DNA from: Candidatus Saccharimonadales bacterium
GTDB lineage: Bacteria; Patescibacteriota; Saccharimonadia; Saccharimonadales; SZUA-47
Length of the DNA stretch: 64,000 nucleotides
Direction of reading: 5' to 3'
Assembly: GCA_038211855.1 (NCBI GenBank)
Contig: JBBQVE010000005.1
Coordinates: 33 to 64,032, forward strand
The notes beneath the pieces were generated by a model. That model saw nothing but the letters and a program-made list of their open reading frames with translations, did not search any database and was not told where the DNA came from. The first letter of the stretch is position 1; every line of letters starts with the position of its first letter. Below are positions 50,498-63,860 of the stretch, piece after piece. The position numbers and the translations under genes are program-made.

Positions 50498-52108
50498 GTG
50501 GCACAAGAGCGACGAGCTCCTAAATATGTGTTTGTCACTGGCGGCGTACTCTCAGGCGTCGGCAAGGGTATTACCGCCTCCTCAATTGGTAGAATTCTGA
50601 AAGCCCGTGGGCTCAAAGTCACCATCCAAAAATGTGATCCGTATCTGAACGTTGATGCCGGCACGCTCAATCCAGCCGAACATGGCGAATGTTTTGTGAC
50701 GTTCGATGGTGCCGAAACCGATCTTGATCTCGGTCACTACGAGCGCTTCCTCGACATCGAACTACCGCGCGAAGGCAGCCTCATGAGCGGTCGACTCTTT
50801 CTGAACGTTATCAACGATGAGCGGAACGGTAAGTATATTGGCAAAACGGTGCAGGTTATTCCTCACCTTACGAATGCCATCCAAGAACATATCATGGGGC
50901 TCGCCAATGATTCTGATGTGCACATCGTAGAAATTGGTGGCACTGTCGGTGATTACGAAAGCCCCGCGTTCATTGAAGCGATACGCGAACTCGGTATGAA
51001 AGTCGGCCGTGAAAATTGTGCATATATCCATGTCGTCTATATCCCATACTTAGGCGCCAGCGGAGAATTTAAGACGAAACCGGCCCAAAACGCTGTTCGT
51101 GACCTTCGATCAGTCGGGATCGTTCCAGATATTCTCGTCGCACGTAGCGAAGACATGCCACCACAGGCAGTCGTAAATAAACTGAGTTTATTCAGTGGTG
51201 TCGATCCGAAAGCGATCGTTCTGCTGCCGAACGCCAGCACGATTTATCAGGTGCCAATAACACTCGAGGAACAAGGTATAGGCACCGTGCTGACCGATAT
51301 ATTCGGCATGCCACAGAGTGATGGCGACCTAACAGAGTGGAAGGCAATGCTGGCACGTGCCATGGATAAAGATGCACCGCTCGTTCGCATCGGTATCGTA
51401 GCCAAATACATGAACAACCAGGATACCTACATGTCGGTGTTTGAGGCGCTGAAAAGCGCGGCATGGTCCCGTGGCAAACAGATAGATATCGTGTGGGTAG
51501 ATGCCGAAAAACTGGCAGAAGAAGCAGCAACTGCCGAAGCATTCCTCAAAGGCCTCGACGGCATCGTCGTACCTGGAGGCTTTGGCGCACGTGCCATCGA
51601 AGGTAAAATCAAAGCCGCTATGTATGCTCTGCAGAATAAACTTCCGTATCTTGGATTGTGCCTTGGGTTGCAGATTTCGGTGATTGCGGCCGCGCGACTC
51701 GCTGGTTTAACTGATGCCAATTCAACCGAATTTGATCCTGAAACGAAGAATCCGGTGATTGCCACAATGGATGAACAGGTTGGCAAAGAAAACACCGGAG
51801 GCACGATGCGCCTTGGTAACTACAGGTGTGACCTTGAGCCCGGTTCGCTGGCCGAAAAAGTCTACGGCACCAAAGAGATCGTGGAACGCCACCGTCATCG
51901 CTATGAGTGCAACAACGCCTACAAAGACCAATACGCCGCGTGGGGTCTCAAGGCGAGCGGCATGTCACCAGACGGCAAGCTTGTCGAAATGATTGAAGGC
52001 ACCGATCATCCATTCTTACTGGGCAGCCAGGCGCACCCGGAGTTTAAATCACGTCCCACTGTTCCACACCCAATGTTCGTCGGTCTCATTGACGCAATCA
52101 GCAAATAA
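50498..52108 (+). CDS. pyrG: CTP synthase
   Basis: KYVFVTGGVLSGVGKGI N-terminus, a C-terminal glutamine amidotransferase domain (GLCLGLQ, HRHRYE). Confidence 0.98.
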   Translation: MAQERRAPKYVFVTGGVLSGVGKGITASSIGRILKARGLKVTIQKCDPYLNVDAGTLNPAEHGECFVTFDGAETDLDLGHYERFLDIELPREGSLMSGRLFLNVINDERNGKYIGKTVQVIPHLTNAIQEHIMGLANDSDVHIVEIGGTVGDYESPAFIEAIRELGMKVGRENCAYIHVVYIPYLGASGEFKTKPAQNAVRDLRSVGIVPDILVARSEDMPPQAVVNKLSLFSGVDPKAIVLLPNASTIYQVPITLEEQGIGTVLTDIFGMPQSDGDLTEWKAMLARAMDKDAPLVRIGIVAKYMNNQDTYMSVFEALKSAAWSRGKQIDIVWVDAEKLAEEAATAEAFLKGLDGIVVPGGFGARAIEGKIKAAMYALQNKLPYLGLCLGLQISVIAAARLAGLTDANSTEFDPETKNPVIATMDEQVGKENTGGTMRLGNYRCDLEPGSLAEKVYGTKEIVERHRHRYECNNAYKDQYAAWGLKASGMSPDGKLVEMIEGTDHPFLLGSQAHPEFKSRPTVPHPMFVGLIDAISK

Positions 52109-52124
52109 CGTTAGGATAAGTATT

Positions 52125-52538
52125 ATGGATCCATCAGTTGTTCAACCAACCCCACCAGCCGCCAACGCTATGAAAAAGATTCTTCTTGTAGAGGACGATG
52201 ATGCACTCGCGAGTGTCTATACCACCCGTCTCGATGCTGAAGGTTTTAGTATTCGACGTGTCCCGAATGGCGAAGAAGCACTGCAGGCCACTCTTGAATA
52301 CAAACCAGATCTGATTTTGCTCGATGTTATGATGCCAAAAGTCAGCGGCTTCGATGTCCTCGACATCCTGCGCAACACGCCCGATACTGCTCACATAAAA
52401 GTGATCATGCTCACCGCTCTCAGTCAAGAAAGCGACAAACAGCGCGCCATGGATCTCGGTGTTGATGACTATTTAGTAAAATCCCAAGTTGTTATTGCTG
52501 ACGTCGTCGACAAAATCCGTCAGCACCTCGACATTTAA
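52125..52538 (+). CDS. single-domain response regulator (CheY-like receiver)
   Basis: KILLVEDDD, DLILLDVMMP (canonical phospho-Asp), VIMLTAL, and DDYLVKS. The ORF track start 51993 overlaps pyrG and is rejected. Confidence 0.88.
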   Translation: MDPSVVQPTPPAANAMKKILLVEDDDALASVYTTRLDAEGFSIRRVPNGEEALQATLEYKPDLILLDVMMPKVSGFDVLDILRNTPDTAHIKVIMLTALSQESDKQRAMDLGVDDYLVKSQVVIADVVDKIRQHLDI

Positions 52539-57977: not shown

Positions 57978-59024
57978 ATGGCAGATAAAAAACAAAGCAA
58001 GCTCAAGACAGCGCTCAGTGTCATAACGATCATTGCGCTTATATTCTTTGTATACGCCTTGCGCCATCAAATAATCGATACCTTCCGAAATCTACGTAAT
58101 GTGAATCCTTGGGCGATTGCGCTGCTGCCGTTTATTCAGCTTATAAACTACCATGCCTATGCCAAGATGTATCAGAATATATACCGTACGCTCGGTGACG
58201 AGCTTGCATACAAGCAACTTTTCAAAGTGCAATTAGAACTTAACTTTGTGAATCATGTGTTGCCGAGTGGCGGTGTATCTGGAATTTCATATTTTAGCGT
58301 GCGAATGCGCAGCCTGGGTATTGGAGCGGGTAAGTCAACGCTCGTACAGTTTATTAAGTTTGGCCTCGTTTTTATATCGTTTCAAGTGCTTCTGGCATTT
58401 GGTTTAGTAGCCTTGGCGATTGTTGGACATGCCAGTCCACTGCTGATTTTAATTGCCGGTAGCCTTTCTACGCTGCTGTTTGTCGGTACATTCTTCGCTG
58501 CCTATATGCTCGGTAGCCGCGAGCGTATCAATAGCTTTTTCATTTTCTTTACGAGGGCATTAAACAAATTTATCTCGTTTTTCCGCCGCGGCCAACATGA
58601 AACAATCAAGATCGATAAGGTTCGTGATACCTTTAATGAGCTACATGATAATTATCTGCTGATTCGCCGAAACCTTGGTCAGATGAAGTTGCCGCTGGTG
58701 TGGGGCCTGGTCGCTAATCTTACAGAGGTACTGACTGTGTATGCAGTCTATATAGCCTTCGGTAAGTTTGTAAATATTGGCGCCGTGACGATTGCATACG
58801 CAGTGAGTAATTTTGCTGGTCTAGTGTCGGTCTTGCCTGGCGGTATCGGTATCTATGAGGCCCTCATGACCGGTACCCTCGTAGCGGCTGGAGTTCCTGC
58901 GGCTTTGTCATTACCGGTGACCGTCATGTACCGTATCTTGAGCGCGCTGATTCAGTTACCCCCGGGCTACTACTATTATCATAAGTTTCTCAACCGGACA
59001 GACAAAGCTGCACCACACGCTTAA
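57978..59024 (+). CDS. flippase-like / lysylphosphatidylglycerol-synthase-TM-region family membrane protein
   Basis: 348 aa, about 8 TM helices, with the basic N-terminus MADKKQSKLK. The overall pattern resembles the UPF0104/LPG_synthase_TM family (by eye). Confidence 0.55.
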   Translation: MADKKQSKLKTALSVITIIALIFFVYALRHQIIDTFRNLRNVNPWAIALLPFIQLINYHAYAKMYQNIYRTLGDELAYKQLFKVQLELNFVNHVLPSGGVSGISYFSVRMRSLGIGAGKSTLVQFIKFGLVFISFQVLLAFGLVALAIVGHASPLLILIAGSLSTLLFVGTFFAAYMLGSRERINSFFIFFTRALNKFISFFRRGQHETIKIDKVRDTFNELHDNYLLIRRNLGQMKLPLVWGLVANLTEVLTVYAVYIAFGKFVNIGAVTIAYAVSNFAGLVSVLPGGIGIYEALMTGTLVAAGVPAALSLPVTVMYRILSALIQLPPGYYYYHKFLNRTDKAAPHA

Positions 59025-59039
59025 GCTACAATAAGAGCA

Positions 59040-60143
59040 ATGGAAGACATTCAACTCGAGGTTTCTGATGCGGTGGCGCTGTTTAACCAGACGCTTGATT
59101 ATGCCTATCCGAGTGTGACGATTGTTGGGGAGCTCGCTAACTTCCGTGTGTCACGGGGCAAGTGGGTTTATTTTGATCTTAAGGACGAGTACGCCCTGAT
59201 GCGCTTCTTTGGCACGGTGTACAGCTTGCCGGGGCCGCTAGAAGACGGTATGAAACTGGCCGTCCGTGGCCGTCCGCATATCCATGAACAGTATGGATTC
59301 AGCATTCAAGTGTCTTCAGTGCAGCCGGTGGGCGAGGGCAGTATCAAAAAGGCCGCCAACTTATTGGCGACGAAGCTCGAAGCTGAAGGGTTGTTTGACC
59401 CAGAGCGCAAAAGACCGATTCCGTATCCGCCACGGACCATCGGATTGATTACATCCATGCAATCTGCGGCCTATGCTGATTTTATTAAAGTCACGGCTGC
59501 GCGTTTTGGTGGTCTGGATATTCAAGTCTATGACTCACAGGTACAGGGCGAACAGGCCATCGCCGACGTATTGGCGGGACTGAAATACTTTAACGAGACT
59601 GGTGATACACCTGACGTGATTGTAATGACACGTGGGGGCGGTAGTGCCGAAGATTTAGCCGTTTTCAGTAACGAGCTGGTAGTAAGGGCTGTAGCCGCGA
59701 GCCGAGTACCGATACTAGTCGCTATTGGTCACGAAGTTGATATTTCGCTCGCCGAACTGGCCGCCGACGCACGGGCCTCGACGCCTAGTAACGCCGCCGA
59801 ACTCCTCGTGCCCGACAAAAAGGACCTCCTCATGCAATTCGAAGACAAAAAATTATGGTTAGCGAAGGGTCTGAGCCAGCAGCTCGAATCACTCAAGAGC
59901 TGGTTAGAATCGAGCACTGAACAGCTCACCAGTACAATCAACTTAGAACTACAAAATCAGGAAGATGACTTACGCGCCAAAGCCCGCCTGCTGGAGGTTT
60001 TAAGCCCGCAAGCAGCCCTAAACAGGGGATATGCGCTCGTCCACACCAGTGGTAAACTCGTCAAAAGCGCCAAAATGCTCAAGTCCGCAGACATCATCGA
60101 CATAAATTTTAAAGACGGGAACGTCAAAGCGAGAGTACACTAA
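59040..60143 (+). CDS. xseA: exodeoxyribonuclease VII large subunit
   Basis: OB-fold N-terminus VTIVGELANFRVSRGKWVYFDLKDE, and catalytic core ITSMQSAAYADF...RGGGSAEDL. Confidence 0.93.
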   Translation: MEDIQLEVSDAVALFNQTLDYAYPSVTIVGELANFRVSRGKWVYFDLKDEYALMRFFGTVYSLPGPLEDGMKLAVRGRPHIHEQYGFSIQVSSVQPVGEGSIKKAANLLATKLEAEGLFDPERKRPIPYPPRTIGLITSMQSAAYADFIKVTAARFGGLDIQVYDSQVQGEQAIADVLAGLKYFNETGDTPDVIVMTRGGGSAEDLAVFSNELVVRAVAASRVPILVAIGHEVDISLAELAADARASTPSNAAELLVPDKKDLLMQFEDKKLWLAKGLSQQLESLKSWLESSTEQLTSTINLELQNQEDDLRAKARLLEVLSPQAALNRGYALVHTSGKLVKSAKMLKSADIIDINFKDGNVKARVH

Positions 60144-60147
60144 CCAT

Positions 60148-60339
60148 ATGGCAAGGTCACAAAAAACAACTTTCGAACTGCAAACTGAACTTGACGAACT
60201 TTTGCTCTGGTTTGAGTCCGATAAAGTCGATATTGACGAAGCAGTTGCAATGTATGAGCATGGCCTGCAGCTGATTGCCGAACTGCAGACTCGTTTGAAG
60301 ACGGCCGAAAACACGATTAAGAAAATATCCAAAGCCTGA
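60148..60339 (+). CDS. xseB: exodeoxyribonuclease VII small subunit
   Basis: 63 aa, FELQTELDELLLWFES...DEAVAMYEHGLQLIAELQTRL. Confidence 0.9.
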   Translation: MARSQKTTFELQTELDELLLWFESDKVDIDEAVAMYEHGLQLIAELQTRLKTAENTIKKISKA

Positions 60340-60827
60340 TGCTTATCGCCTGGGCTATTGGCATTGCGCTCATCTTATTGTTTGGGTTTACGGCTTTTTT
60401 TGGCGCACCGTTCCTGCCGACGCTTGCCAACCGGACGAAAGATGCGCTTGATTTACTCGATTTAAAACCCGGCGAGCGGTTACTGGAGCTAGGCAGCGGC
60501 GACGGGCGTTTATTGGCGGAAGCGGCCAAGCGGGGCATCGACTCGATTGGCTACGAGTTAAATCCACTACTCGTCTGGTATTCTCGCATAAAACTATTGC
60601 GCTATCGAAATCTCACCACTGTTAAATGTGTAAATTATTGGACACATAAGTTGCCTGAAGCCGAAGGTATTTACGTCTTTTTACTGAATCCGTACATGGA
60701 AAAACTGGACAAAAAAATCAAAAAAGAAGCCAAAAAACCAGTGAAACTCGTCAGTTTTGCCTTTGAAATCCCGGGCAAAACATCAACCAAAGAAATCAAA
60801 GGTATGCGCTTATACTTGTATAAGTAA
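60339..60827 (+). CDS. membrane-anchored class I SAM-dependent methyltransferase
   Basis: N-terminal TM helix, GAPFLPT, then SAM motif LLELGSGDGRLL. Confidence 0.75.
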   Translation: MLIAWAIGIALILLFGFTAFFGAPFLPTLANRTKDALDLLDLKPGERLLELGSGDGRLLAEAAKRGIDSIGYELNPLLVWYSRIKLLRYRNLTTVKCVNYWTHKLPEAEGIYVFLLNPYMEKLDKKIKKEAKKPVKLVSFAFEIPGKTSTKEIKGMRLYLYK

Positions 60828-60854
60828 CAGATTTTGTTTACCATAAGAACAATC

Positions 60855-61523
60855 ATGAAACGTTCGAACCAGTGGGGTGCAATCAGTATCGCGGTCATCG
60901 TGGCCGTCACCATGTCTATGCTTTTTATAGGCGCGGTGATTTTTGGAGTTATTACATATTCTGGGGAGCAGGATTACAAGAACAACACAAATCAAAAGAT
61001 TGATACTGCGATTGAGGTCACCAAGAAGCAAGAAGACACCACCAAAGATAATCAGTTTGCTGAAGATTCCAAAAAGCCAACCAAGAACTATCAAAGCTCG
61101 GCAACATTTGGCAGCGTGTCATTTGATTATCCTCGGACATACAGTGGCTACGTCGTGGAGACAAATACAGATAGTAGCAAACCGGTCGATGGCTACTTCC
61201 ATCCAAATATTGTCCCATCAATTACTGATGACTCTGTTTCCTACGCTTTACGCATCAACGTCGTTAGTACGACGTATGATTCGATACTTAAGACGTATGC
61301 GCAGAATATCAAAATTGGCACTGTAAAAGCGGCGCCATTTCGCGCTGCCAAAGTGCCACAGACTTTAGGAACGCGCCTTGATGGACAGATTTTTGTAAAG
61401 AAATCCGGAACGATGATCGTGTTGCCGCTGCGTGACAAGACAATAGAAATCTGGACAGAGTCGAGTCAGAACGCCGGTGACTTTAGTAAGTTCGTCATTC
61501 CAAGTATCAACTTCGTACCGTAG
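60855..61523 (+). CDS. hypothetical membrane-anchored exported protein
   Basis: MKRSNQWGAISIAVIVAVTMSMLFIGAVIFGVI anchor plus a soluble domain of about 180 aa. The ORF track start 60834 (TTG) is the alternative. Confidence 0.55.
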   Translation: MKRSNQWGAISIAVIVAVTMSMLFIGAVIFGVITYSGEQDYKNNTNQKIDTAIEVTKKQEDTTKDNQFAEDSKKPTKNYQSSATFGSVSFDYPRTYSGYVVETNTDSSKPVDGYFHPNIVPSITDDSVSYALRINVVSTTYDSILKTYAQNIKIGTVKAAPFRAAKVPQTLGTRLDGQIFVKKSGTMIVLPLRDKTIEIWTESSQNAGDFSKFVIPSINFVP

Positions 61524-61590
61524 TAAAAGAGACTGCAATTATAAAATCTTGTCGGTGCTATACTCAGTTATAGACATATAAGGGGTAACG

Positions 61591-62277
61591 ATGGCTGTAA
61601 ACGGGCACGATGCTTTGCAAGAAGATTCACTCTTCAGTGCGCTTGCTGAAGACCTAAAAACACCTTTCTTACGCATTGCGTATCAAGCCGAAGTTTCGGC
61701 AGCTGCGGATATTAAAATGACTGCCGTTGCTGCCCTCAGACTGATCGATGCTTATCTGTTAAGCACCAAATCGCAAGCTCAATTTGAACTCGAGCCAGTC
61801 AACCCAGATGCTGTACTTGTTGACGTGGCGCACGAACTCTCCGCCCATGCTCGGCGATTTGATTGCGAGCTACAACTCAGTCTGCCAACGCAGCACGGCG
61901 CGGCTTTGCTCCATCGTCAAGCCTTGACCTCGGCCCTGACGGCAATTGGCATGGTCTTCATTGAGGCGCAGGGCATTATGGGTGGTACACGTATCATTAA
62001 GATGGCTGCTTACCGCACTCCAAAAGGAATATCAGTTGGCCTGTTTCAAACCGAAGGTCTCAGCACGATTAACGCGCAACTGCTATCGCGCGCCCGAACG
62101 CACGTTGGCAGTGCGGCGCGACCTTTTGCGGGCCTGGCGAGCGGTGCTGCCGCTCAACTATTCGTGGCGGAGCGGTTGCTGACTGGTATGCAGTCATCAT
62201 TACGATCCGCCAAACGCGGTGGCCTCGTTGGCCTCGCCGCTGACTTATTGCCATCGAGCCAATTGCACTTAATATGA
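61591..62277 (+). CDS. soluble histidine-kinase-like protein with degenerate H-box (His replaced by Glu) and degenerate ATP-binding boxes
   Basis: LFSALAEDLKTPFLRI aligns to the HisKA H-box xxSHELRTPLxxI, with Glu20 at the His position. The C-terminal half has HATPase_c-like spacing, but no clear N or G1 box. No TM or sensor domain. Confidence 0.55.
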   Translation: MAVNGHDALQEDSLFSALAEDLKTPFLRIAYQAEVSAAADIKMTAVAALRLIDAYLLSTKSQAQFELEPVNPDAVLVDVAHELSAHARRFDCELQLSLPTQHGAALLHRQALTSALTAIGMVFIEAQGIMGGTRIIKMAAYRTPKGISVGLFQTEGLSTINAQLLSRARTHVGSAARPFAGLASGAAAQLFVAERLLTGMQSSLRSAKRGGLVGLAADLLPSSQLHLI

Positions 62278-62651
62278 AAACTACCTCCGTCAAACAAGTC
62301 TTGCTCATCGAACCTGATAGTGTGCAAGGACTGGCAATCACACGCCTGCTAAGCACAGCGTCACTGCAGCTGCATATTGCATCCAGCGCGCAGAGCGCCG
62401 TCTCAACTGCCGATGGTATCGTACCCAATGCGGTGATATTGGAACTTGCTTTACCAGAGCACAACGGCATCGAATTTCTGCATGAATTCCGTAGTTATCC
62501 GGAGTGGGCCGAGGTACCGATCATCATCTTTTCGCAACAGCGCGTAGATGACGTCACCGTATTTAAAGGCCTCGGCGATATCACGTATCTCTACAAACCG
62601 ACGACGAGCCTCGCAGCCTTAAAAAAGCAACTCGAGCATGTATTAGCGTGA
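62274..62651 (+). CDS. receiver-domain protein with Glu at the phospho-acceptor position (atypical/pseudo-receiver)
   Basis: VLLIEPD, AVILELALPEHNG (canonical DLxMP has Asp where Glu57 sits here), IIIFS and YLYKP are retained. Overlaps the upstream gene by 4 nt. Confidence 0.7.
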   Translation: MKTTSVKQVLLIEPDSVQGLAITRLLSTASLQLHIASSAQSAVSTADGIVPNAVILELALPEHNGIEFLHEFRSYPEWAEVPIIIFSQQRVDDVTVFKGLGDITYLYKPTTSLAALKKQLEHVLA

Positions 62652-63331
62652 AGCAGATCGCCACCGAAGCAATCGTTCTAGGCCGCATCGACTTCGGTGA
62701 AGCTGGTCGTATCCTGACGCTGCTTACCAAGGATCAAGGCAAAATCAGCGCCCTCGCCAAAGGCGTTCGGCGCCCCAAAAGCAAGCTTGCTGGCGGCGTA
62801 GAGCTGTTCACAATTTCAGACATAGTCTACATCGACGGCAAAGGCGACATCAAAACCCTCGTATCTGCCCAGCTCAAAACAAACTTCCAATACATTAACA
62901 GCGACATCACGCGTAGTATGTTGGCCTACGACGTACTCAAATACACTAATCTTTACACCGAAAGTGTGTGTGAAGACAGCTATTTTGAGCTCGTCATCAC
63001 CGTATTTGGTAACCTGCAAAATAGGGAATTAGATCCTGCAATTATCTGGCTGTGGTTTGGTGCTCAGTTGTTGGAACTATCAGGTCACGCCATCAACGTT
63101 GCGACCGATGCCGACGGCAATCAGCTGCTAGCCACTGACAAGTTTAGGTTTGATTACGAGAATATGGCATTCATGCCGGCTGCGCAGGGGAGTTTTACGG
63201 CAAAACACATCAAAGTCGTCCGTTTGTGCCAGCAGTTTGACGCAGCGCATATCTCATCTGTACAAGGCGTAACGGAGGCGGCAAAAGCCATGCATATCCT
63301 TATTCTAGAATGTATCAAGTACAACAACTAA
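62648..63331 (+). CDS. recO: DNA repair protein RecO
   Basis: EAIVLGRIDFGEAGRILTLLTKDQGKISALAKGVRRPKSKLAGGVELF is an OB-fold N-terminus. GTG start overlapping the upstream stop. Confidence 0.9.
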   Translation: MKQIATEAIVLGRIDFGEAGRILTLLTKDQGKISALAKGVRRPKSKLAGGVELFTISDIVYIDGKGDIKTLVSAQLKTNFQYINSDITRSMLAYDVLKYTNLYTESVCEDSYFELVITVFGNLQNRELDPAIIWLWFGAQLLELSGHAINVATDADGNQLLATDKFRFDYENMAFMPAAQGSFTAKHIKVVRLCQQFDAAHISSVQGVTEAAKAMHILILECIKYNN

Positions 63332-63334
63332 TTA

Positions 63335-63363
63335 TTGACATAAGCGCTATTATGCTGTATAGT
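63335..63363 (+). promoter_or_regulatory. consensus promoter (TTGACA-17 nt-TATAGT)
   Basis: TTGACA at 63335-63340 and TATAGT at 63358-63363, immediately after the recO stop. Confidence 0.6.
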
Positions 63364-63500: not shown

Positions 63501-63860
63501 ATGAAACCAACACCCCTGCCACTAAGCGCTACGGTCGTAAACGCGCAACTCGATACTGCTTCAGAAACCGCATTTATGGAGCAAGGATTAAGCGATAAGC
63601 CATATGACTGGGCACATGAAAAGCCAACCGTAGAGCCTGCCGTCGATACAGCTCAGTTAGAGAGAGCAGATACACAACGATTCTTGAACGAACTCAAAGG
63701 TGAAACTGAAGCCCGCAACGGCGTACTAGGTGTCGGACGTTTTGCTATGAACTATAGTGGAGGTTTGGTAGAACCAGTCGGTAAGAGCGAACAGATTGAT
63801 TCCGATCCAACTCCTGCTCATGGTACAGAACGACCCGCCATCATTCCTGATGCTGCCTAG
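63501..63860 (+). CDS. orphan acidic protein (119 aa)
   Basis: SD AGAGG 10 nt upstream. No signal peptide and no recognisable family. Confidence 0.5.
   Translation: MKPTPLPLSATVVNAQLDTASETAFMEQGLSDKPYDWAHEKPTVEPAVDTAQLERADTQRFLNELKGETEARNGVLGVGRFAMNYSGGLVEPVGKSEQIDSDPTPAHGTERPAIIPDAA

Follow-up and report, generated by a model that had tools for sequence, protein, structure and literature searches.

In a 64-kb stretch of DNA from a Candidatus Saccharimonadales bacterium (64,000 nucleotides of contig JBBQVE010000005.1; the whole stretch is called the window below), a histidine kinase-like protein and a receiver-like protein are encoded by two overlapping genes immediately upstream of recO. 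Alignments with canonical homologues show that both proteins lack the residues needed to bind ATP or Mg2+, to autophosphorylate, or to accept a phosphoryl group, and the phospho-site of each is occupied by a glutamate. We call the product of open reading frame 1 (ORF1) the pseudo-histidine kinase (pHK) and that of ORF2 the pseudo-receiver (pRR). The two probably constitute a cognate pair in which phosphotransfer has been abolished on both sides and which now serves as a phosphorylation-independent protein–protein module. An initial annotation of the window had read the pair as such a module. Our results support this reading, and the loss of phosphotransfer goes further than was noticed there, since the Asn and Asp residues for ATP and Mg on the kinase side and the second metal-binding Asp on the receiver side are gone as well. 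The coordinates of the ORFs, the ATGA and GTGA gene overlaps, and the GAA codons of Glu20 and Glu57 are all as that annotation read them.

Degenerate active sites of the kinase-like and receiver-like proteins

As a single sequence, ORF1 gives no match in Pfam, NCBIfam, or the PDB sequences, and only family profiles and fold searches were informative. A word-based search found 19 relatives besides its own database entry, and an exhaustive profile search extended the family to 635 representatives at 50% clustering. Of these, 150 were listed (109-254 residues, mostly ~220-250), and they form the basis of the residue counts given below for pHK. The family members are named "hypothetical protein" in the databases and, once, "signal transduction histidine kinase"; weak HisKA matches are found in 6 of 20 close members. 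A profile built from 136 family sequences matches about 15 solved kinases in the PDB with E-values from 9.4e-10 to 1e-4, covering both the DHp and the CA domains. The best match is CpxA (9.4e-10), followed by 7z8n (1.5e-9), and DivL (3.4e-8), ZraS, ShkA, KdpD, and HK853 are also matched. The best-matching CpxA chain, 4biz, carries the H-box ISEELRTPL, in which Glu takes the place of the His of other CpxA entries, and scores 41.6 bits compared with 39.1 and 38.9 bits for His-containing CpxA chains.

The AlphaFold2 (AF2) model of ORF1 (pLDDT 74, pTM 0.73) consists of two long helices followed by an α/β sandwich. A Foldseek search with this model gave 318 matches at E<=1e-3, the best 50 of which are cores of kinases or proteins derived from them (for example, DivL, ChpT, and phytochrome HK-related domains). 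The top matches are the EnvZ chimera 4kp4, DivL 4q20, HK853, CusS, RetS, and ChpT. ORF1 thus has the architecture of a class I histidine kinase, a DHp hairpin followed by an α/β CA domain, according to both the model and the fold search. The two domains account for the full chain, leaving neither a transmembrane nor a sensor segment, in agreement with the initial annotation. The relationship to histidine kinases, which had been proposed from the H-box-like segment, is borne out by the profile and the fold together; the similarity is significant, and proper alignments place no His or Asp at the phospho-sites.

ORF1 was aligned with two canonical kinases by hmmalign to obtain residue equivalences. 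The His of SHELRTPL corresponds to Glu20, as had been suggested, and the following Glu of the canonical H-box is replaced by Asp21. The two Asn positions of the N-box are occupied by Ala118 and Val122, the N-box Lys/Arg by Glu125, and the G1 Asp by Gln153, while the G2 sequence GGTGLGL is replaced by SGAAAQL. The absence of clear N, G1, and G2 boxes, noted earlier by inspection, is confirmed, and ORF1 has neither the phospho-His nor the nucleotide-binding residues of a class I kinase.

These replacements are features of the family. At position 20, Glu is found in 129 of the 150 representatives, Gln in 9, and Asp in 7; His is not among the residues counted there, and no conserved His exists throughout the DHp hairpin (residues 11-58) of the same sequences. 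The second, Mg-binding Asn of the N-box (position 122) is replaced by Val, Ser, Ala, or Thr in the family, with Asn never seen. The first N-box position (118) is Asn in 8/77 sequences and the G1 position (153) is Asp in 2/77, and only a partial remnant of G2 is left. A phosphotransferase of the ChpT/Spo0B type needs a conserved His on DHp helix 1, which ORF1 lacks, and no HPTransfase Pfam match was found for ORF1 and 20 close family members. The parts of pHK that are most conserved are the H-box helix and a C-terminal SxQLxLV tail, the DHp hairpin being the most conserved element. The tail (residues 222-228; 62254-62277) runs beyond the normal end of a CA domain, with an invariant Gln224 and with Ser222 in ~90% of sequences.

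ORF2 matches Response_reg in Pfam (PF00072) with 39.4 bits (cut-off, 30.2). Its AF2 model (pLDDT 91.4) is a regular (βα)5 fold with five β-α units, and the closest structures found by Foldseek are ordinary receivers, namely WspR, RR468 (TM score 0.84-0.87), DivK, and KdpE. LLIEPD, listed in the initial annotation as a landmark of the fold, is more than that, because its Pro14 is a second lesion in the active site. In pairwise HMMER alignments, ILELALP of ORF2 aligns with IILDLGLP of KdpE and ILQDLVMP of WspR, which places Glu57 at the acceptor Asp, as had been proposed. Similarly, VLLIEPD aligns with VLIVEDE of KdpE, which places Pro14 at the second metal-binding Asp. ORF2 consequently has neither the acceptor Asp nor the full Mg2+-binding DD pair of a receiver, of which Glu13 still provides the first acidic residue, while the residues that contact the phosphoryl group, Ser/Thr and Lys, are kept as Ser87 and Lys108. 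A pseudo-receiver has been defined as a PF00072 domain in which one or more of the five active-site residues are missing, and its aspartate-less subset as one without the acceptor Asp (PMC12632262). ORF2 belongs to this subset, with the second residue of the DD pair also gone.

Glu57 and Glu13 are each found in 118 of 120 pRR homologues and Pro14 in 119, while position 87 is divided between Thr (62) and Ser (58). Lys108 is invariant both in a 45-sequence alignment and in all 85 unique metagenomic loci, where the acceptor position is Glu in 76, Asp in 8, and Gln in 1. The conservation of the two glutamates in relatives, which the initial annotation had proposed to check, is thus confirmed on both sides. 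The most conserved element of pRR is helix α3 with the preceding loop, where the top-residue frequency is 0.89 compared with 0.41-0.46 for α1, α4, and α5. This region carries the motif HNGIEFLxEFRSYxEW, in which F68, E71, F72, R73, S74, Y75, and W78 are invariant in the 45 sequences. Since 392 of 407 metagenomic stretches that match the peptide pattern [YH]EFRSYx[ED]W encode pRR relatives, the pattern is a signature of the family.

Table 1. Positions of the genes, active-site codons, and signals in the window
Feature	Position	Strand	Description
Possible extended -10 element TGcTATACT	61556-61564	+	In the 67-nt gap before ORF1; read by eye
Shine-Dalgarno-like AAGGGG	61580-61585	+	5 nt 5' of the ORF1 ATG
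ORF1, pHK	61591-62277	+	228 residues; soluble; DHp hairpin and degenerate CA domain
DHp-like helical hairpin (residues 11-58)	61621-61764	+	Model helices 11-35 and 38-58; H-box remnant LAEDLKTPFLRI
Glu20 codon (GAA)	61648-61650	+	Phospho-His position; hmmalign with CpxA and 7z8n H-boxes
Degenerate CA domain, HATPase_c-like (residues 68-222)	61792-62256	+	AF2, Foldseek, hmmalign
ORF2, pRR	62274-62651	+	125 residues; single-domain pseudo-receiver
Glu13-Pro14 codons	62310-62315	+	In place of the acidic DD pair; second metal-binding Asp lost
Glu57 codon (GAA)	62442-62444	+	Acceptor Asp position; HMMER pairwise alignment
Signature segment HNGIEFLHEFRSYPEW (residues 63-78)	62460-62507	+	End of the β3-α3 loop and helix α3; candidate output/binding surface
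recO	62648-63331	+	GTG start; RecO_N 73.1 bits; TIGR00613 67.6 bits (cut-off 48.7)
Promoter TTGACA-17-TATAGT	63335-63363	+	Near-consensus, sigma-70 type; 11/12 matches
xseA, xseB, methyltransferase-like gene, 229-residue membrane protein gene	59040-61523	+	Conserved upstream neighborhood

Inheritance of the pair and its association with recO

We fetched 90 related loci. Of the 392 confirmed relatives from a metagenome scan with the receiver pattern, 80 were fetched, and a scan of genome collections with a closer alignment yielded 3 loci; positional counts were restricted to loci with enough flanking sequence. The homologues carry the names Saccharibacteria, Saccharimonadales, and Saccharimonas, and the lineage sampled is probably Saccharibacteria. 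In all 70 scorable loci, pHK lies directly 5' of pRR on the same strand, and in all 64 scorable loci, recO lies directly 3' of pRR, so the three-gene arrangement seen in the window holds in relatives as well. One extra place beyond the 90 loci has its called genes in the same arrangement. The pHK/pRR junction overlaps or leaves a gap of <=10 nt in 62/76 loci, and the overlap of 4 nt between the pRR stop and the recO start is kept in 66/80 loci. In the window, the corresponding overlaps, read directly from the sequence, are ATGA (62274-62277) and GTGA (62648-62651). The downstream gene is assigned as recO on the basis of a RecO_N OB-fold domain and the equivalog score for TIGR00613.

ORF1, ORF2, and recO look like a single transcription unit, because a gap with a promoter-like element precedes ORF1 and a promoter follows recO. 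The element before ORF1 was missed by a promoter consensus scan, as no -35 match is present. The promoter on the other side begins 4 nt past the recO stop and probably starts the next transcription unit, thereby bounding a three-gene operon.

The pair also appears to move together. Between locus L076 (311-2086) and locus L084 (2247-4074), the recO DNA is 87% identical, and this identity starts exactly at the pRR stop/recO start, whereas the pHK and pRR proteins are only 55-62% identical and their DNA is almost unalignable. The pattern reveals a recombination breakpoint at the pRR/recO junction and, therefore, exchange of the pHK-pRR pair as a unit. Both loci have residues other than Glu at the former His position (Leu and Asp). 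The invariable same-strand order, the tight junctions, and this exchange together characterize pHK and pRR as a cognate, co-inherited pair. The ratio of nonsynonymous to synonymous substitution rates (dN/dS), calculated from close locus pairs with unsaturated dS, is 0.04-0.23 for pHK, 0.03-0.15 for pRR, and 0.03-0.14 for recO. The values for pHK and pRR are low and similar to those for recO, indicating that both are working proteins under purifying selection.

The states of the two former phospho-sites were compared within the metagenomic loci. At position 20 of pHK, a carboxylate is found in 58 of 65 scorable sequences. The combinations of pHK position 20 and pRR position 57 are Glu/Glu in 51 loci, Asp/Asp in 4, Gly/Asp in 2, Asp/Glu in 2, Asp/Gln in 1, Arg/Glu in 2, Leu/Glu in 2, and Gln/Glu in 1. 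The loci that deviate at the receiver site form an Asp subclade (L030, L039, L041, L059, L064/L089, L065, L066, and L072). At the acceptor position, its receivers carry Asp (Gln in one case), and HNG is replaced by GRSG or GHGG; in its pHKs, the H-box reads LSDDL(A/S)LPL, where the His position is occupied by Asp or Gly and the next Lys is lost. The Asp-bearing loci group together on the RecO tree, nested inside the Glu/Glu diversity, which suggests that one lineage altered both sites together, from Glu/Glu to Asp/Asp.

Proposed mode of action and rival explanations

The conserved features of the two proteins suggest how such a module could work. The pHK dimer would bind the receiver through its conserved H-box helix in a phosphate-free manner akin to DivL-DivK. 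In the receiver, Ser87, Lys108, and the carboxylate of Glu57 would jointly hold an active-like state, mimicking phosphorylation. Substitution of Asp by Glu can partly activate receivers (PMC12632262), and the PhoB variant D10A/D53E, described as constitutively active (PDB 2jb9), is among the structural matches of ORF2. The invariant helix α3 (EFRSYxEW) is likely to be the output surface of pRR, judging from its conservation, and would face a third partner. The foremost candidate here is RecO because the start of recO is coupled to the receiver stop, a conserved translational coupling, although this step is the least certain one. The initial annotation had proposed that the pair remains a switch or scaffold, with a link to recombination and repair through recO; this is possibly so, and our data are consistent with it.

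A more specific version of this scheme, which we put forward tentatively and regard as doubtful, is that the two proteins form an obligate "frozen phosphotransfer complex" free of phosphate. Glu20 of pHK and Glu57, Glu13, Ser87, and Lys108 of pRR would build a shared site, which could be filled by a divalent metal, a proton, or a small ligand, and occupancy of the site would gate formation of the complex. Through α3, the complex would in turn control recombination that depends on RecO, or else how taken-up DNA is processed, across the lineage sampled (probably Saccharibacteria). If this is true, phosphorylation has been replaced by another reversible input on the same scaffold.

Several observations weigh against the proposed phosphorylation-independent pair or parts of its mechanism. 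Receiver helix α1, the usual surface for docking to a DHp domain, is weakly conserved (0.46) in contrast to the well-conserved H-box helix of the DHp hairpin, which leaves it uncertain that docking follows the canonical mode. A pair of opposed carboxylates would be mutually repulsive unless bridged or protonated. About 11% of the pHKs in the metagenomic loci are non-acidic at position 20 (Arg, Gly, Leu, or Gln). The co-variation of Glu and Asp at the two sites amounts to a single lineage or event, is anecdotal, and carries little weight. Furthermore, the wider gene order is ~90% conserved: in loci with enough flanking sequence, xseA is present upstream in 28/32, xseB in 38/43, the methyltransferase-like gene in 41/43, and the gene for the 229-residue membrane protein in 45/49. 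The adjacency of recO may thus be general synteny of compact genomes, and the argument drawn from it is weakened accordingly.

This last point bears directly on the question of the target. The pair may be a real, phosphorylation-independent module whose target is unrelated to RecO, in which case the partner could be the membrane protein encoded upstream, the envelope machinery, or something else; we consider this a genuine possibility, though not a likely one. The upstream genes are likewise conserved in order, in 88-95% of loci, gene overlaps are common here, with pHK and pRR overlapping too, and the L076/L084 breakpoint splits recO from pHK-pRR. In other bacteria, recO sits in functionally unrelated operons such as era-recO, which counts in the same direction. 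On the other hand, the adjacency of recO in 64/64 loci is tighter than that of any upstream gene, the 4-nt overlap with pRR is kept in most loci, and the trio persists in locus L009 despite an entirely different upstream context, which there consists of purine biosynthesis genes.

Another explanation concerns the window's canonical receiver (52125-52538). ORF1 could be a kinase-dead phosphatase of, or a binding competitor on, canonical receivers such as this one, with ORF2 as an accessory. The His is dispensable for the phosphatase activity of HisKA proteins (PMC12632262), ORF1 keeps Asp21 and Thr24, which correspond to the E/DxxT/N phosphatase motif beside the former His, and the canonical receiver is an orphan in a window without a kinase. 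Across the family, however, the motif is not a shared trait: the +4 position is Thr in 17/150 and Leu in 73/150, and the +1 position is mostly Gln. In addition, pRR is co-inherited at 70/70 loci and is itself highly constrained, and we consider this explanation quite unlikely. A conserved phosphatase role for pHK, in particular, is rejected because the motif is unconserved.

The conservation of both glutamates, which are not drifting, and the retention of Ser87 and Lys108 would also fit a covalent switch of non-canonical chemistry, for instance a glutamyl acyl-phosphate, phosphorylation of another residue, or methyl-esterification of Glu by the methyltransferase-like neighbor, which is membrane-anchored and present in the cluster at 41/43 loci. 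Such chemistry is very unlikely, since the ATP-binding Asn and Asp are absent from the CA domain, the second metal-binding Asp is missing in the receiver, and a conserved His occurs nowhere in the DHp hairpin. The methyltransferase match is far under the cut-off (28 compared with 200 bits) and unrelated to CheR. Finally, the loss of all catalytic residues on both sides is what would be expected of a decaying, functionless relic of a two-component system. This idea is scarcely credible in view of dN/dS values of 0.03-0.23 that are comparable to those of recO, the 635 representatives with intact reading frames, the invariant signature motifs, and the retention of the pair in very small genomes. 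We reject it, as the dN/dS and conservation data effectively refute it.

Related systems and neighboring genes

Both pseudo-histidine kinases, such as DivL and PsmA, and pseudo-receivers with an Asp-to-Glu change are already established. The His is lacking in approximately 0.9% of HisKA domains and the Asp in approximately 2% of receivers (PMC12632262). In the literature searched, neither the pHK/pRR family nor a dedicated, lineage-wide cognate pair that is degenerate on both sides is described.

Among the known kinase-like proteins, a close parallel is the DivL-DivK system of Caulobacter (PMC4211667; 4q20), in which a kinase core without phospho-His serves as a platform that binds and senses a stand-alone receiver. 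DivL is the second-best structural match of ORF1 (E 1.6e-8, TM score 0.64). It differs in having Tyr at the site and PAS sensor domains and in that its partner DivK is phosphorylatable, whereas here both proteins are degenerate and pHK is sensor-less. PsmA of Streptomyces venezuelae (PMC12963549) resembles pHK in the replacement of the H-box His by Glu, the unconserved ATP-binding residues, and undetected autokinase activity. However, the replacing residue in PsmA varies by species (Glu, Asp, Gln, Val, or Tyr), its receiver keeps the Asp, and it is a large hybrid protein that binds DivIVA; in contrast, ~86% of the pHK family have Glu, and their receiver is a protein of its own that lacks the Asp. 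ChpT and Spo0B (4fpp) are also soluble proteins of about 225 residues with a DHp hairpin and a CA-like domain that no longer binds ATP, and ChpT matches ORF1 with an E-value of 2.4e-7. They keep the His and shuttle phosphate, unlike ORF1 with its His-less DHp domain.

On the receiver side, pRR is similar to plant pseudo-response regulators, fungal Rim15p, and bacterial aspartate-less receivers (PMC12632262), in which Glu is the commonest replacement of the acceptor and the second metal-binding Asp is mostly lost, but none of the pseudo-receivers described there has a dedicated pseudo-kinase partner. PhoB D10A/D53E combines loss of a metal-binding Asp with an acceptor Asp-to-Glu change, as pRR does. 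This variant was made in the laboratory from a DNA-binding regulator, whereas in the natural pRR the second acidic position is Pro and an output domain is lacking. FrzS of Myxococcus (PMC1974792, PMC9811614) is an Asp-less receiver that signals through its α3β4α4 face, and α3 is likewise the most conserved part of pRR. FrzS differs in its coiled-coil fusion, its place in the Frz chemosensory system, its sequence motif, and its lack of a pseudo-kinase partner.

Nearly all characterized pseudo-receivers are orphans, whereas pRR comes with a dedicated pseudo-kinase partner, and both sites are fixed as Glu. How bacterial pseudo-receivers are switched on and off has been called a mystery in a review (PMC12632262). 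A soluble system of 228 and 125 residues could show what role a kinase-receiver interface plays once the phosphate is removed. The retention of the pair across hundreds of small-genome lineages, probably Saccharibacteria, suggests that its function is needed. The pair may also provide a handle on the control of recombination or DNA processing in poorly understood bacteria that live attached to other bacteria.

The trio lies within a larger conserved cluster. In ~90% of loci with enough flanking sequence, eight genes occur in the order LPG_synthase_TM (MprF-like), xseA, xseB, methyltransferase-like gene, 229-residue membrane protein gene, pHK, pRR, and recO; the order spans 57978-63331 in the window and is also found in loci L004-L007. 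The names xseA and xseB were assigned to the window's ORFs from Exonuc_VII domains on syntenic homologues. The methyltransferase-like protein (60339-60827; 162 residues), two genes 5' of the pair, has an N-terminal hydrophobic helix and a class-I S-adenosylmethionine-methyltransferase core; its faint match is to an archaeal protein-lysine N-methyltransferase model (E 1.5e-6, 28 bits compared with a cut-off of 200). The 229-residue protein encoded just 5' of pHK (60834-61523) has one N-terminal transmembrane helix and a C-terminal domain of ~170 residues and gives no family match. It could be a separately encoded sensor for the sensor-less pHK.

Beyond recO, the gene that usually comes next in related loci encodes a class II aminoacyl-tRNA synthetase. 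In the window, the promoter at 63335-63363 is followed by two unannotated ORFs, one from ~63376 and the other at 63501-63860 (119 residues), the latter without a Pfam match. The ORF from 63937, beginning MSEVTLEDIASLAKRRGFLYQ, looks like the start of this synthetase gene.

The initial annotation had pointed to a canonical single-domain receiver elsewhere in the window that is not accompanied by a kinase, and this holds. No histidine kinase or canonical H-box is present anywhere in the 64 kb, and the receiver (52125-52538) is fully canonical, scoring 89.4 bits with the DD pair, the acceptor Asp, Thr, and Lys all intact. Its gene lies directly after that of CTP synthase (50498-52108).

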